Assembly: GCA_902563835.1 (NCBI GenBank) | Contig: CACEZB010000004.1 | Coordinates: forward strand, 342 to 64,341 | Source of the DNA: an uncultured SAR86 cluster bacterium | Lineage (GTDB): Bacteria > Pseudomonadota > Gammaproteobacteria > Magnimaribacterales > D2472 | Direction: 5' to 3' | DNA length: 64,000 bases | Shown: one piece after another, positions 24,295-29,587 of the stretch | Layout: every line of letters begins with the position of its first letter | Numbering within the stretch: position 1 is the first letter of the stretch | Notes under the pieces: model-generated | The model's database searches: none | What the model saw: only the letters and a program-made list of their open reading frames with translations | What the model was told of the DNA's origin: nothing | Made by a program: the position numbers and the translations under genes

Positions 24295-24666
24295 ATGAAA
24301 ATGTTTCATATTTTTTTAATCTTAATTTCAGTAAATATTTCATCAGATTCTTTATATGGACTTGAAAATGAAGTAAATGAAACTAGATTTAATAATTTAA
24401 TAAAAGATATAAGATGTCCAAAGTGTACTTCAGGCTCATTATCAAGCTCTAATGCTCCGATATCAGAAGACTTAAAATTAAAAATTGTATCAATGATTCA
24501 GGAAGGTAAAACTGATCAAGAAATAAAGGATTATGTTACATCGAGATTTGGAAAAGAATCATTGTATGAACCAGAATTTAATAATAGTACTTATATTTTA
24601 TGGCTTGCGCCATTTGTAGTTTTATTTCTCGCTTTATTCATTTTTATATTTAGAAAGAAAACGTAA
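24295..24666 (+). CDS. ccmH: Cytochrome c-type biogenesis protein CcmH
   Basis: IRCPKC, SNAPISEDLK, RFG...YEP, C-terminal TM LWLAP. Confidence 0.92.
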   Translation: MKMFHIFLILISVNISSDSLYGLENEVNETRFNNLIKDIRCPKCTSGSLSSSNAPISEDLKLKIVSMIQEGKTDQEIKDYVTSRFGKESLYEPEFNNSTYILWLAPFVVLFLALFIFIFRKKT

Positions 24667-25451
24667 TGCTTCCATTCTATTTGTTAACTTTTTTTGCAGC
24701 TTTACCTATTCTTGCATATGTCCTAGCACAGAAGACCAATAATAAAGGATTGGTTATTGGTTTTACTACAATAGTTCTATCTTTATGTTTGGTAGTATTT
24801 GTTAGTAAATTTGCAATATTGGGAAGTCTTCAAAAACAAATATTAAATAATAAGATTTTTGACCAAATATATGTTGATTCAAAAATTTCAAGTGAGCATT
24901 TAAAAGAAATAGAAACTCTTCTTAATGAGGATGAATTAAAGAATTGGTTAGTTGGACTTACCACCGAAGCAATTAATTTAAATAAGCTAAATTCAGCTGA
25001 AAGTTTAATAACATTCTCTGAAAGGTTTTTTATAACAAACAACGAAAAATTAATATTTTATGGGTTGTATACAAATTTAAGAGATGCAAGATTCCCTGAA
25101 TATAAGGATGTAGTCTTTTCAGTAGATATTAAATCTGACTTACCTTGCTCAATAAAAAGCGGCAATATAGATCTTTTTATAATGAACGGTCCTGACATAC
25201 CAATAGCAAAGAAGGAAATCGATGATATTAAAGACATGATATTAACTAATCTAGATAGTGTGATTCCTGGATTTGATTTGGCATCGGCCCACCTTAACCA
25301 AGAAACAATAGAATTCAATATTAAAATATCTTGTATTGATAATTCTGACTTTTTTTATGTTAAAAATCTCATAGTTTTAAATCAAACTAGTACTGCTAAT
25401 AAATATAAAATTAATTTAAATGAATGGTTAAAAACACCACAAGAGTTATAA
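24666..25451 (+). CDS. Membrane-anchored protein in the CcmI position (divergent)
   Basis: Two N-terminal TMs, helical middle, C-terminal GPDIPIAKK reminiscent of the CcmI C-domain; overlaps the ccmH stop. Confidence 0.5.
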   Translation: MLPFYLLTFFAALPILAYVLAQKTNNKGLVIGFTTIVLSLCLVVFVSKFAILGSLQKQILNNKIFDQIYVDSKISSEHLKEIETLLNEDELKNWLVGLTTEAINLNKLNSAESLITFSERFFITNNEKLIFYGLYTNLRDARFPEYKDVVFSVDIKSDLPCSIKSGNIDLFIMNGPDIPIAKKEIDDIKDMILTNLDSVIPGFDLASAHLNQETIEFNIKISCIDNSDFFYVKNLIVLNQTSTANKYKINLNEWLKTPQEL

Positions 25452-25475: not shown

Positions 25476-27674
25476 ATGCAGCTAAAACACATAAAACTAT
25501 CAGGTTTTAAAAGTTTCGTCGATCCAACGAAAATATCATTTCCTACTAATATGGTTGGAGTTGTCGGTCCGAATGGATGCGGAAAATCAAATGTTATAGA
25601 TGCTGTGCGTTGGGTGCTTGGAGAACTTTCAGCAAAAAATCTTCGTGGTGAATCAATGGCAGATGTTATTTTTAATGGCTCTGAAAAAAGAAAACCCTCT
25701 GGACAATGCAGCATTGAACTTCTTTTTGATAATTCTAGCGCCAAAATTGGTGGCGAGTATGCATCTTTTAATGAAGTTTCCATTAAAAGGGTTATGACAA
25801 GAGACGCTCAATCAGATTATTTTATTAATAATACAAAATGCAGGAGAAAAGATGTCCAAGATATTTTTCTTGGTACTGGTTTAGGCCCAAGCTCTTATGC
25901 AATTATCGAACAGGGAATGGTTAGCAAGCTTGTAAGTGCAAAACCAGATGAACTTAGAACCCATATTGAAGAAGCTGCTGGAGTATCCAAATATAGAGAA
26001 AGAAGAAGGGAAACAGAGTCAAGAATTAAACGCACAAAAGAAAATCTCTCAAGAGTAAAAGATATTCGTGATGAAATTGGAAGACTTATTAGAAGATTAG
26101 AAAATCAAGCCAAAGCCGCAGATAAGTACAATCAACTTAAAAAAGATAAAACAAAATTAGAGCTTGATAAAGCTATATTATTTTCGATGGAAGCAAAAAA
26201 TAATCGAGATAAATTACAGAAGAAATTGGATGCGCATAATCGTGACCTGAAAATTAAAAATGCTGAATCAGAAACAATCCAATCGCAAATAGATCAATTT
26301 AGAACTGAAAATGAGTCCCTATTGAGTGAATATGAATTAGCGCAAAAGAATTTCTATGCAGTTGGTGCAGAAATTGCAAAAAGAGAAGCCAATTTACAAA
26401 ATATTAATAAATCAGAATCAGAGACTAAATATAGTCTTCAAAAAGCAAAAGATAATTATGAAAAAGCCAAAGAAACTGAGAAAAATTTTGATGAATTAAG
26501 TCCTAGTGAGAAAGCTATGCATATTCTGGATAGTATCATCCTTACAATAGATAAATTCAATATTAATAATGAAAGTATTAGAGAAAAAGCTATGGAGCTT
26601 AAAAATTTACTTACAGAAATTTTAGATATTGCATCAGCTCAATCTAAAACATTAACTGATGAATATCTTTCTCGTCAAAATGACTTAGAAGAACAAATCG
26701 AGGAAGCAGAAAAACTTAAGAGTTCTATCCAAGATGAAATGAAAGACTTTGTTAGTAAAAGCTCAGATGCAGAGTCAATTCTAGTCGCGCTGAGACAAAA
26801 ACAATCAAAATTTAATGATGAATTAAGAAATCTAGAAAATAAAAAATCTATCGCAGATTTAGACTCTAAATCTATTTCTGAAAAAATAACAAATATTCGT
26901 CTTGAACTTAAAACATATGAAATAAATTTAGATAATTCAAATAAAAAAATTAAGGAAGCTGGTATAGATATTGATACTGTTAATTTTTCAGATTATGAAG
27001 ATACGACATTAGATGAAATCGAAGATAGCTTAACTGCTATAGAGACTAAAATAATTAGATTGGGTGCAATTAACTTAGCTGCACCAGAAGAAATCGCGGA
27101 TGAATCAAAAAGAAAAGAAGAATTAGATGAGCAATACAATGACCTTACAGAAGCATTAGATAAACTTAATGGCGCTATTAAGAAAATTGATAACGAAACA
27201 AAAACAATATTCAAAGATAGTTTTGATGCTGTCAATTTAAAACTTAAAGAGATGTTCCCAAAGTTATTTGGGGGAGGTGTTGCTGAGCTCACCTTAACCG
27301 ATGATGATCCATTGCATGCTGGAGTAGTTTTAATGGCAAGACCTCCAGGAAAAAAGAATTCATCTATTTCACAATTATCTGGTGGAGAAAAAGCTTTAAC
27401 GGCTTTAGCTTTAGTATTTGCTATTTTTGATCTTAATCCAGCACCATTTTGCTTATTAGATGAAGTAGATGCACCTTTAGACGACTTAAACACTCTTCGA
27501 TTTATAAATATGGTTGAAGAAATGTCAAAGTCGATACAATTTATTTTTATTACTCATAATAAAGTTTCTATGGAGCGAAGTGATTATTTAATGGGAGTTA
27601 CAATGCAAGAGGCTGGTGTTTCAAGAATGGTATCCGTTGACGTCAATCAAGCACTCAAACTAGCTGAATCATAA
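25476..27674 (+). CDS. smc: Chromosome segregation protein SMC (shortened, no recognisable hinge)
   Basis: GFKSF, GPNGCGKSN, IIEQG Q-loop, EEAAG, LGAINL, LSGGEK, LDEVDAPLD, ITH; only 732 aa. Confidence 0.93.
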   Translation: MQLKHIKLSGFKSFVDPTKISFPTNMVGVVGPNGCGKSNVIDAVRWVLGELSAKNLRGESMADVIFNGSEKRKPSGQCSIELLFDNSSAKIGGEYASFNEVSIKRVMTRDAQSDYFINNTKCRRKDVQDIFLGTGLGPSSYAIIEQGMVSKLVSAKPDELRTHIEEAAGVSKYRERRRETESRIKRTKENLSRVKDIRDEIGRLIRRLENQAKAADKYNQLKKDKTKLELDKAILFSMEAKNNRDKLQKKLDAHNRDLKIKNAESETIQSQIDQFRTENESLLSEYELAQKNFYAVGAEIAKREANLQNINKSESETKYSLQKAKDNYEKAKETEKNFDELSPSEKAMHILDSIILTIDKFNINNESIREKAMELKNLLTEILDIASAQSKTLTDEYLSRQNDLEEQIEEAEKLKSSIQDEMKDFVSKSSDAESILVALRQKQSKFNDELRNLENKKSIADLDSKSISEKITNIRLELKTYEINLDNSNKKIKEAGIDIDTVNFSDYEDTTLDEIEDSLTAIETKIIRLGAINLAAPEEIADESKRKEELDEQYNDLTEALDKLNGAIKKIDNETKTIFKDSFDAVNLKLKEMFPKLFGGGVAELTLTDDDPLHAGVVLMARPPGKKNSSISQLSGGEKALTALALVFAIFDLNPAPFCLLDEVDAPLDDLNTLRFINMVEEMSKSIQFIFITHNKVSMERSDYLMGVTMQEAGVSRMVSVDVNQALKLAES

Positions 27675-28283
27675 ATGACTACCAATTCAGAAATTTATTT
27701 AATTGGATTAGCAGTATTAACATTTTTAATAATAGTATTTTTGTATATAAGAAAAATTTCGAACTCAAGCAAACTTAAACTTAGGATTGAAGAACAGTCT
27801 GATGCTATTGAATCTCCTGAGGTAGATATCAATAATCAACAATCCTTTGAATATGAGAACAGTAAGGAAGAGCAAGAGTTAGCCATATTAAATTTAATTT
27901 CTGTAGACAGGTCTATGTATGATATAGAACAGATCTTTGGATTTCTTACTAACTATGGTGCAAAAATTAACAACAAATTTTTTTCTTTCAATAATAAAGA
28001 TGGAATGGAAAGATTTAGAGTTATAAATGCACTAAATCCTGGAACTTTTAAAAATGATACAAAGACCTTTGCAATTGCAATTGTTGCAGATCTTATGAAG
28101 GTAGATGATCCATTAGATACAGTAAAACAAATGGTTGAATTTTCTATAAATTTTGCTGATAAATTTCATGCATCCCTTTGCGATGAAGAAAGGACTCCAA
28201 TTACGAAACAGATGATTTCACATATGGAATCCAGGGCTCAAGATGTAGAAAGAATAAAACAACTTTCTAACCATAATGATTAA
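27675..28283 (+). CDS. zipA: Cell division protein ZipA (compact)
   Basis: N-terminal TM plus C-terminal FtsZ-binding-like domain (FRVINALNPGTF, LCDEERTPIT); canonical position after smc. Confidence 0.8.
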   Translation: MTTNSEIYLIGLAVLTFLIIVFLYIRKISNSSKLKLRIEEQSDAIESPEVDINNQQSFEYENSKEEQELAILNLISVDRSMYDIEQIFGFLTNYGAKINNKFFSFNNKDGMERFRVINALNPGTFKNDTKTFAIAIVADLMKVDDPLDTVKQMVEFSINFADKFHASLCDEERTPITKQMISHMESRAQDVERIKQLSNHND

Positions 28284-28300: not shown

Positions 28301-29587
28301 ATGAATGATCCATGGAAAATTATCAAAGAATTAGAAAGCGATAATAGCCGTTTATTTAAAGAGGGTGTTGTTGAAAATAATTTGAATAATATAGATTTTC
28401 AAGAAGGTCTTTCAATGTGTTTAGATCCACTTATAACCTTTGGAGTAAAACAAGTTCCAGAATCAGAAGAAGATGGAGATGGCTTGAAATGGAATGACTT
28501 CAAGAAAAATGTTTATCTATTAATTGAAAGAAAAAAAACAGGTCATGCAGCTAGAGATTTAATAATTGACTTAATGAGTTCTGCTAAAAAAGATCAATGG
28601 AATAATTGGTATAGAAGAATATTAATAAAAGATCTAAGGTGCGGCGTGAGTGAGAAAACTGTCAATAATGTGGCAAAAAGGATGGATTTAGAATTTAAAG
28701 TTCCAATTTTTTCATGCATGCTTGCCCATGATGGTGCAAAACATCCAAAAAAGATAAAAGGAGATTGTTTAGTTGAATATAAATATGACGGAGTTAGAGT
28801 AATCGCTATAGTTAAGAATGGAAAAGCAACCTTATACAGTCGTAATGGAAAGATATTTCACAATTTCCCCCATATCGAGAATGCTTTAAGTAAATCAGAA
28901 TACAATAATATTGTATTTGATGGAGAAGTTATGAGCGATGATTTCCAAGCTTTAATGAAACAAGTTTATAGAAAATCAGGAGCTCAAACAGATGATGCTT
29001 ATCTTGCTCTTTTTGATATTCTTCCATTGAAAGAATTTAATGAAGGTAAAAGTAAACTTAGTTCAATTGAAAGAAAAGAGGAATTAAATAAATTATCAAA
29101 GAGTTTTGAAAATGCAATTAAATTAGTAGATTATGAAGTAATAAATTTTGATGAAAAGGATGGTCAGGATAAATTTGCAAGCATGAATAAAGAAGCTCTA
29201 GAAAAAGGTTTCGAAGGCTTGATGATCAAACCAAATGATAATTATTATGAATGCAAAAGAAGCCATGCATGGTTAAAAATCAAACCTTTTATTGAGGTTA
29301 CTTTAAAAATTATAGATATTCAGGAGGGTACTGGAAAACATTCCGGTAAGCTGGGCGCATTTCATGTAGAAGGTGATGATGATGGAAAATTCTTTTCATT
29401 AAGCGTTGGAAGTGGTTTAACTGACGAGGAAAGAGAGAAATTTTGGGCATCAAAAGACAAATTAATAGGAAGACTTGTTGAAATTAGAGCAGATGCAATA
29501 ACTCAAAGCATTGAAGGAGAACATTACAGCTTGAGATTCCCTAGATTCAAAAATTTTAGAGGTTTTAAAAAGGATGAAAAAATATAA
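28301..29587 (+). CDS. ATP-dependent DNA ligase (phage/T4-like architecture)
   Basis: Motif I EYKYDGVR, SRNGK, FDGE, FDIL, EGLMIK, KRSHAWLKIKP, VGSG, SLRFPRF; N-terminal domain with KDLRCG; no LigA Zn-finger/HhH/BRCT. Confidence 0.93.
   Translation: MNDPWKIIKELESDNSRLFKEGVVENNLNNIDFQEGLSMCLDPLITFGVKQVPESEEDGDGLKWNDFKKNVYLLIERKKTGHAARDLIIDLMSSAKKDQWNNWYRRILIKDLRCGVSEKTVNNVAKRMDLEFKVPIFSCMLAHDGAKHPKKIKGDCLVEYKYDGVRVIAIVKNGKATLYSRNGKIFHNFPHIENALSKSEYNNIVFDGEVMSDDFQALMKQVYRKSGAQTDDAYLALFDILPLKEFNEGKSKLSSIERKEELNKLSKSFENAIKLVDYEVINFDEKDGQDKFASMNKEALEKGFEGLMIKPNDNYYECKRSHAWLKIKPFIEVTLKIIDIQEGTGKHSGKLGAFHVEGDDDGKFFSLSVGSGLTDEEREKFWASKDKLIGRLVEIRADAITQSIEGEHYSLRFPRFKNFRGFKKDEKI

Follow-up and report, generated by a model that had tools for sequence, protein, structure and literature searches.

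The smc gene of an uncultured bacterium of the SAR86 cluster (GTDB lineage Gammaproteobacteria; Magnimaribacterales; D2472) is located at positions 25476–27674 on the + strand of a 64,000 nt stretch of DNA (assembly GCA_902563835.1, contig CACEZB010000004.1, positions 342 to 64,341; this whole stretch is here called the window). Textbooks describe the hinge as the site at which SMC complexes dimerise, bind DNA and possibly let it enter, and the Smc protein of 732 amino acids (aa) encoded by this gene has no hinge. We have hardly any doubt that it is a genuine gammaproteobacterial Smc orthologue that has lost its hinge. All further coordinates refer to the window and to its + strand. Family and genus codes (f1–f4, g11–g16) and the identifiers beginning with G, P or L are arbitrary codes of this analysis.

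A hinge-less Smc with half-length arms

The gene is a single unbroken open reading frame (ORF) of 732 codons plus stop, with about 30% G+C as in the rest of the window, and its assignment rests on the ORF list, the translation, the NCBIfam model TIGR02168 and the Pfam domain SMC_N, which covers residues 3–716 of the protein (P0001; E 2e-60). The N-terminal half of the ATPase head comprises residues 1–165 (25476–25970) and the C-terminal half residues 566–732 (27171–27671), both boundaries being approximate. The former holds the Walker A motif GPNGCGKS (residues 31–38) and the Q-loop IIEQG (143–147), the latter the signature LSGGE at residue 634, the Walker B motif LLDEVDA at 660 and the H-loop THN at 693. 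None of the five motifs varies when the protein is aligned with full-length Smc. At both ends the protein matches solved structures of Smc heads, with E values of 1e-105; PDB chain 5h66_A covers the N-terminal head over residues 2–201, and chains 5h66_B and 3kta_B match the C-terminal head. Thus, the uninterrupted 732-aa frame with intact head motifs at both ends, described in an earlier note made from the letters of this DNA, is as stated there.

The same note had taken the protein for a condensin. Indeed, with 818.1 bits the protein lies above the cut-off of 567.35 set for TIGR02168, the NCBIfam model of the chromosome segregation protein SMC. The match is split into two stretches, the first of which pairs residues 2–379 with model positions 1–374 of 1181. 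The partners ScpA and ScpB, too, are kept in the lineage (see below). Rad50 and other SMC-like models score far under their own cut-offs (57.9 bits against 700 for the best Rad50 model). Among 1.84 billion representative proteins, 139 of the best 150 matches are 1100–1250 aa long and roughly 40–50% identical. Within these best 150, the nearest relatives outside SAR86 are Smc proteins of 1150–1180 aa, and the two that were scanned carry SMC_hinge at 524–627. In trees calculated on the shared columns all SAR86 Smc sequences fall on one side of a branch that separates them from the non-SAR86 ones, with support in the Shimodaira–Hasegawa-like approximate likelihood ratio test of 99 (50 rows) and 100 (59 rows). 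The orthology follows from the TIGR02168 score together with the smc-zipA-ligase synteny and the grouping with gammaproteobacterial Smc. The position of all SAR86 sequences on one side of the branch fits a single loss of the hinge before the order radiated. In the databases the source names of near-identical proteins include 'SAR86 cluster bacterium', and their labels read 'recombination protein RecF' or 'AAA family ATPase', names which hide the condensin of SAR86 in the annotation.

The absence of the hinge was established in three ways. The Pfam model SMC_hinge (PF06470), a scan proposed in the earlier note, gave no match in the 732-aa protein even at E ≤ 1, none in the source genome (73% complete), and none in any of 104 genomes of the order. 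This set consists of the source genome and those relatives from the order that are at least 85% complete, and 57 of its members are of high quality. The genome search with PF06470 also failed to hit Caulobacter and Bacteroides, two control genomes that do encode a hinge-bearing Smc. Therefore, a custom hidden Markov model (HMM) of the hinge, 179 positions long, was trained on the 139 full-length homologues nearest to the protein. P0001 yields no hit to it, and none of 31 SAR86 Smc sequences matches it significantly (E ≤ 0.01), the best E value being 0.19. Positive controls of the model reach 1e-47 to 1e-62, and two hinge-bearing Smc of 990–1003 aa on which it had not been trained reach 7e-47 and 1e-60. 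Furthermore, the 732-aa sequence holds no G-x6-G-x3-GG hinge motif and no CxxC, its sole cysteines being residues 35, 78, 122 and 659. Pfam, custom HMM and motif scan agree here with the earlier note, according to which globular hinge, glycine motif and zinc hook were all missing.

The joint alignment with the full-length protein P0125 locates what is gone. Residues 1–338 and 395–732 map one-to-one onto 1–338 and 839–1176 of P0125, so that 338 residues at either end run collinear with Smc of 1160–1176 aa and some 500 central residues are replaced by 57. As the custom HMM places the hinge of P0125 at 491–678, the missing piece amounts to about 152 residues of the distal N-terminal strand, about 188 residues of hinge and about 160 of the distal C-terminal strand. 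What is lost, as far as this alignment tells, is a matched hairpin made of the hinge and the distal parts of both arms, and the 57 residues stand in its place. The remaining N-terminal arm strand (residues 166–338, 25971–26489) aligns one-to-one with residues 166–338 of full-length Smc and holds a conserved site made up of Q290, Y294 and G297. The C-terminal strand (residues 396–565, 26661–27170) aligns with 840–1009 of the 1176-aa Smc and holds the conserved site GAINLAAPEE at residues 530–539; the head-plus-joint chain 5xei_A of Pyrococcus Smc matches residues 482–731. With 173 and 170 residues the two strands are matched in length and reach about half the usual value, in line with the roughly half-length arms of the earlier note. 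Both show heptad-type periodicity. The N-terminal strand has only three glycines (G169, G202 and G297) and no proline, and residues 166–565 altogether hold seven prolines or glycines. Scaled from the published length of about 47 nm for the 344-residue arm of B. subtilis (PMC5344682), the arm would measure about 24–26 nm.

The tip, as we call the segment between the strands (residues 339–395, 26490–26660), sits where the distal arms and the hinge would be. A helical amphipathic segment had been placed at about 26496–26670 in the earlier note. Such a segment is real and amphipathic, at the slightly different position given here, whereas its helical nature is a prediction, as is that of a hairpin cap. 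The tip begins with a conserved LSP-x-EKA, followed by an amphipathic stretch, a variable N/S/G-rich loop that is five residues shorter in some genera, a second amphipathic stretch and a conserved QSK end. The heptad-type amphipathic periodicity of residues 343–360 is reached by 3.4% of 2000 shuffles and that of residues 367–394 by 0.9%. The tip residues S342, P343, E345, L375, L379 and Q389 are the same in all 16 sequences from eight genera of family f1, in contrast to the flanking arm residues; only three further invariant positions of the distal region lie outside the tip. The segment is acidic, with 11 D+E versus 6 K+R and a net charge of -5. A profile of the tip gave no significant match to the PDB sequences, the best hits (E 0.17) being unrelated helical proteins. 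When two copies of residues 270–465 were submitted to complex prediction, run without controls, the scores were 0.28, 0.42 and 0.27 against a mark of 0.42, and we conclude nothing from them.

Conservation and length classes in the SAR86 order

A short gene such as this could be the product of an assembly deletion or a decaying pseudogene, and the state of the source genome assembly, 991 kb in 31 contigs and 73% complete, would allow for it. However, the same gene of 727–736 aa is found in many independent genomes. A short Smc was matched (E ≤ 1e-40) in 99 of the 104 genomes, among them 54 of the 57 of high quality. In a collection of 5.8 billion proteins the best 120 clusters are all 732 aa long, 87–100% identical and derived from several sources, and they sit on contigs of up to 1.37 Mb. 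Full-length smc in near-identical genomes had been named in the earlier note as the sign of an assembly deletion; within the length range searched, 402–1281 aa, there is no near-identical full-length Smc. Near-identical smc DNA occurs in 14 public sequencing runs from nine studies, one of which runs may be the source of the window. In one run a contig of 6345 nt spans the whole gene with nine differences and no gaps, and a contig of 1245 nt from a second study crosses the tip, likewise without gaps. Together with the open frame, the intact motifs and ratios of nonsynonymous to synonymous substitution rates (dN/dS) of at most about 0.06, the independent genomes and spanning contigs rule out a deletion or a pseudogene, to which we concede practically no probability.

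A low-depth contig of run X1 joins position 26467 to 26823 and skips 355 bases, which is not a multiple of three. Its shorter side has 21 letters, and it probably comes from another organism or is a chimera; it was set aside.

The dN/dS values were obtained from 18 pairs within the genus whose dS is unsaturated (0.05–0.33), pairs which are not independent of each other. They are 0.012 for the N-terminal head, 0.030 for the N-terminal arm, 0.053 for the tip, 0.061 for the C-terminal arm and 0.017 for the C-terminal head. A calculation over all 15 sequences of the genus was set aside, as dS was saturated at about 1.4 and pairs without a finite dS had been dropped. Hence smc, including its tip, is under purifying selection. 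An alignment across relatives had been suggested in the earlier note to see if the deletion is conserved and selected; both hold, with 99 of 104 genomes and a dN/dS no higher than 0.061.

The exact ORFs of the fetched loci fall into three length classes. Smc of 727–736 aa is found in the source genus, in six other genera of family f1 and in family f4, and Smc of 809–827 aa in families f2 and f3. The third class, 995–996 aa, occurs only within f1, in genera g11 and g16 and in some species of g12 and g13 (loci L070–L076, relatives G088, G065, G075, G079, G093, G067 and G070). Its layout is N1-N2-tip-C2-C1, in which the N side is longer by 120 residues and the C side by 143. The added segments are diverged copies of the neighbouring arm segments, N1 and N2 being 26–51% and C1 and C2 28–51% identical, depending on the lineage. 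The LSP...QSK motif is well conserved at the new tip (residue 461), and its copy within the arm (residue 341) has decayed. On the tree the 995-aa class is scattered and requires at least three changes, and sister species within g12 and g13 differ by 263 residues. This may be due to repeated gain, repeated loss or exchange. The 'streamlined condensin' of the earlier note holds insofar as the protein is a hinge-less, half-length Smc of the condensin type; streamlining as such is too simple, because close relatives with equally small genomes carry the re-lengthened 995-aa form. Published modes of Smc arm length are 163, 238 and 341 aa in the parts of that survey used here (PMC5344682); head and tip boundaries in our sequences are uncertain by about 20 residues, so that a correspondence of the three classes to these modes is a mere suggestion.

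The tips are not the same throughout the order. In the f4 proteins (732–736 aa; loci L065–L069 and L021–L024) we noted a tip with a conserved aromatic and glycine-rich motif, FW-x2-GY-x2-G-x-G. MAFFT places this motif under W-x2-A-x-E-x2-LG, the hinge start of full-length Smc, which may be chance or may reflect a remnant of the hinge. Outside SAR86, the 906-aa protein P0240 has no match to the Pfam or the custom hinge model and an intact SMC_N. In the tree it groups with full-length proteins and not with SAR86, and its hinge loss is thus independent.

Partners and possible mode of action

ScpA and ScpB, for which a search had been proposed in the earlier note, are encoded by adjacent genes and were each found in 97 of the 104 genomes, including all 57 of high quality. 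They were not found in the 73% complete source genome; its relative G085, whose Smc is 98% identical to that of the source, has both. ParB is present in all five genomes searched, that is the source genome and four of four relatives, and MukB in none of these five. As far as searched, the lineage has no SMC-type condensin other than the SAR86 Smc, which retains its usual partners.

From these data the history of the protein and a probable mode of action can be drawn. Its forebear was an ordinary gammaproteobacterial Smc of 1160–1180 aa. In an ancestor of the SAR86 order the hinge and matched outer parts of the arms, about 152 and 160 residues, were lost, and the two remaining blocks of 338 residues are joined by the 57-residue tip. 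The two strands may fold back on each other into an antiparallel coiled coil of about 24–26 nm, roughly half the usual length and capped by a conserved helix-loop-helix tip. Two molecules would then align side by side as a short rod. Contacts between the arms, a small helical bundle formed by the tip, and ScpA, which with ScpB bridges the heads, would keep them together. Loading would occur through ParB at parS, and a normal ATP cycle of the heads would drive capture of the DNA and translocation along it. We regard such a short rod-shaped dimer, with ScpAB at the heads, the conserved tip and arm contacts at the far end, loading by ParB and propulsion by the ATPase, as probable on the whole. 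That the function of a condensin has been retained is highly probable; dimerisation at the tip is a tentative part, for which the chances are slightly below even. Fold-back, dimerisation at the tip, closure of a ring and loop extrusion are what we infer for this protein; the helical dimerisation module at the apex and the much smaller ring of the earlier note are likewise proposals.

Work on B. subtilis makes a working Smc without a hinge plausible. In the sections of the two papers considered here, replacement of the B. subtilis hinge by a Rad50 zinc hook is reported to allow normal growth, the fold of the dimerisation domain being called 'surprisingly uncritical' (PMC5344682), and contacts between the arms are reported to help B. 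subtilis Smc to dimerise when it lacks the hinge (PMC5526789).

The latter observation also serves a different reading, in which the tip is a hairpin cap and nothing else, and the complex an open-tipped clamp or rod that is held by the arms, the ScpA bridge and the ATP-engaged heads. The divergence of the tip sequence between families of the order is as expected of a mere turn. A simple turn would, however, not need about 50 conserved residues, and within family f1 no other part of the distal arms is as well conserved. The duplicated 995-aa forms keep the motif only at the true tip, and an arm of half length offers fewer arm-to-arm contact sites for a dimer. We consider an open tip, the main alternative, rather unlikely.

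Several points speak against the short rod-shaped dimer with a tip that takes part in dimerisation. Between families the tip sequence differs, f4 and f2/f3 having other tips, which is odd for a fixed dimer interface. Its acidic character means that the tip is no substitute for the DNA-binding surface that is attributed to the hinge. Fold-back and helical tip are read from periodicity, from the scarcity of proline and glycine and from the matched lengths of the strands. ScpA and ScpB are missing from the incomplete source genome. Contigs from RNA libraries (runs X15 and X16) cover smc only in part, including 26386–26557; they are short, such libraries can contain DNA, and we claim no expression from them. 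Finally, in the experiments of PMC5344682 considered here, B. subtilis mini-Smc proteins whose arms had the wrong length remained stuck at parS even though they hydrolysed ATP, and an arm of half length is therefore not guaranteed to work.

In a further reading the protein has ceased to organise the chromosome and has become a DNA-repair or tethering ATPase of the RecN or Rad50 kind. Its ABC (ATP-binding cassette) head and predicted coiled coil without a hinge form an architecture that resembles RecN and Rad50/SbcC. RecN dimerises through the end of its coiled coil. Like the SAR86 protein as predicted here, these ATPases combine the head and the coiled coil with a small apex that is not a hinge. 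In favour of such a change it can also be said that hinge-less SMCs may 'perform a different function', as put in the sections of Sussfeld et al. compared here (PMC12153180). Yet the Rad50 models remain far below their cut-off, there is no CxxC and hence no zinc hook, and the lineage has ScpA and ScpB as partners, not Mre11 or SbcD. The two Scp proteins are kept in every high-quality genome, the synteny of smc and zipA is unchanged, and with no MukB in the five genomes searched nothing else would cover the role of a condensin. We therefore judge a changed function to be very improbable and retain the condensin reading.

A more far-reaching interpretation is that the order provides a natural arm-length series of a working condensin which closes its ring without a hinge, the lineage-specific helical tip (LSP-x-EKA ... 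QSK in family f1) being a new dimerisation module. The arms would have changed only in matched, quantised steps, with strands of about 173, 215 and 305 residues and with the paired duplications of 120 and 143 residues among these steps. Taken jointly, this is a speculative proposal which we think could be true but do not expect to be. If it is true, the hinge is dispensable for Smc-ScpAB in nature, and the arm-length rule derived from engineered B. subtilis proteins also governs evolution.

The neighbourhood of smc is that of a gammaproteobacterial smc locus. The zipA gene (27675–28283; 202 aa), its synteny marker, begins one base past the smc stop and matches Pfam ZipA_C (E 2.8e-12). In the ZipA of other bacteria a linker precedes this domain; here ZipA_C, which binds FtsZ, occupies residues 71–186 of 202, and the linker appears much shortened. 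The zipA gene is followed by a gene for an ATP-dependent DNA ligase (28301–29587; 428 aa) with Pfam DNA_ligase_A_M (E 1.7e-23) plus OB_2. Gammaproteobacteria normally carry the NAD-dependent ligA at this position after smc-zipA. The adenylation domain of NAD-dependent ligases, PF01653, was found neither in the 73% complete source genome nor in three genomes of the same family that are 95–97% complete, and it is located directly beside smc in the family-f4 genome G033. This suggests that LigA was replaced in place in the source family. Upstream of smc are genes for cytochrome c maturation. Between ccmH and smc lies an ORF of 261 aa (24666–25451) to which Pfam assigns nothing at E ≤ 0.001; by its position, it could be the last gene of this cluster.

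Comparison with known systems and significance

Compared with the bacterial Smc of the B. subtilis and Pseudomonas type (TIGR02168, about 1160–1190 aa), the SAR86 form shares the orthology, the head motifs, the collinear 338 + 338 residues and the ScpA, ScpB and ParB of its lineage. It differs by the missing hinge, by the loss of about 152 + 160 distal arm residues with arms of half length, and by the acidic, predicted-helical tip of 57 residues.

The expectation in the earlier note that shortened SMCs may already be known elsewhere is borne out. Sussfeld et al. 2025 (Environ Microbiome 20:65, PMC12153180) describe, in the sections compared, an abundant monophyletic cluster of ocean 'hinge-less' SMCs without CXXC, which is placed near the base of Actinobacteria, annotated as Actinomycetes and not accompanied by a regular SMC. 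Common to both are the SMC head with an antiparallel coiled coil (predicted in SAR86), the lack of hinge and CXXC, the absence of a regular SMC alongside, and the abundance and wide distribution in ocean metagenomes, whereas source names and tree make the SAR86 Smc gammaproteobacterial. ScpAB, arm-length classes and a tip motif, treated here for SAR86, are not treated in the sections of PMC12153180 that were compared. The word 'SAR86' is absent from the main text and three supplementary files of that paper, and a literature search on SAR86 with SMC or chromosome segregation, and on hinge-less SMC, returned no paper on the Smc of SAR86. We therefore regard the SAR86 Smc as a probably independent, gammaproteobacterial lineage of a type first published in 2025, and the concept is no longer new. 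As mere leads, the ESM Atlas, which has no model of P0001 or of protein P0122, holds clusters of SMC_N proteins of 736–919 aa in Actinomycetota, Spirochaetota and Minisyncoccota.

Closest among engineered proteins are the Mini-Smc and Smc(Zh) of B. subtilis (Burmann et al. 2017, PMC5344682, as far as compared here), in which the ATPase is retained while the arms are shortened or an unrelated module takes the place of the hinge. Made in the laboratory, these proteins still have a hinge or a zinc hook, and their shortest functional arms measure 253–267 aa, against about 173–190 aa and no known dimerisation fold in SAR86. The arm-length survey in the same paper began, in the part consulted, from alignments of the hinge and could therefore not pick up hinge-less proteins.

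According to these findings, Smc, ScpA, ScpB and ParB have been retained throughout an order of bacteria that are very abundant in the ocean, although its Smc has no hinge and arms of half length. To specialists in SMC proteins the case will come as a surprise, and it lends itself to direct testing. The ideas of a periodic constraint on arm length and of a dispensable hinge rest so far on engineered B. subtilis proteins; the SAR86 order offers material on both, with three discrete length classes of Smc, one of which has regained length through matched duplications. The SAR86 Smc provides a natural lower limit to the needs of a condensin and is a natural test of what the hinge is for.

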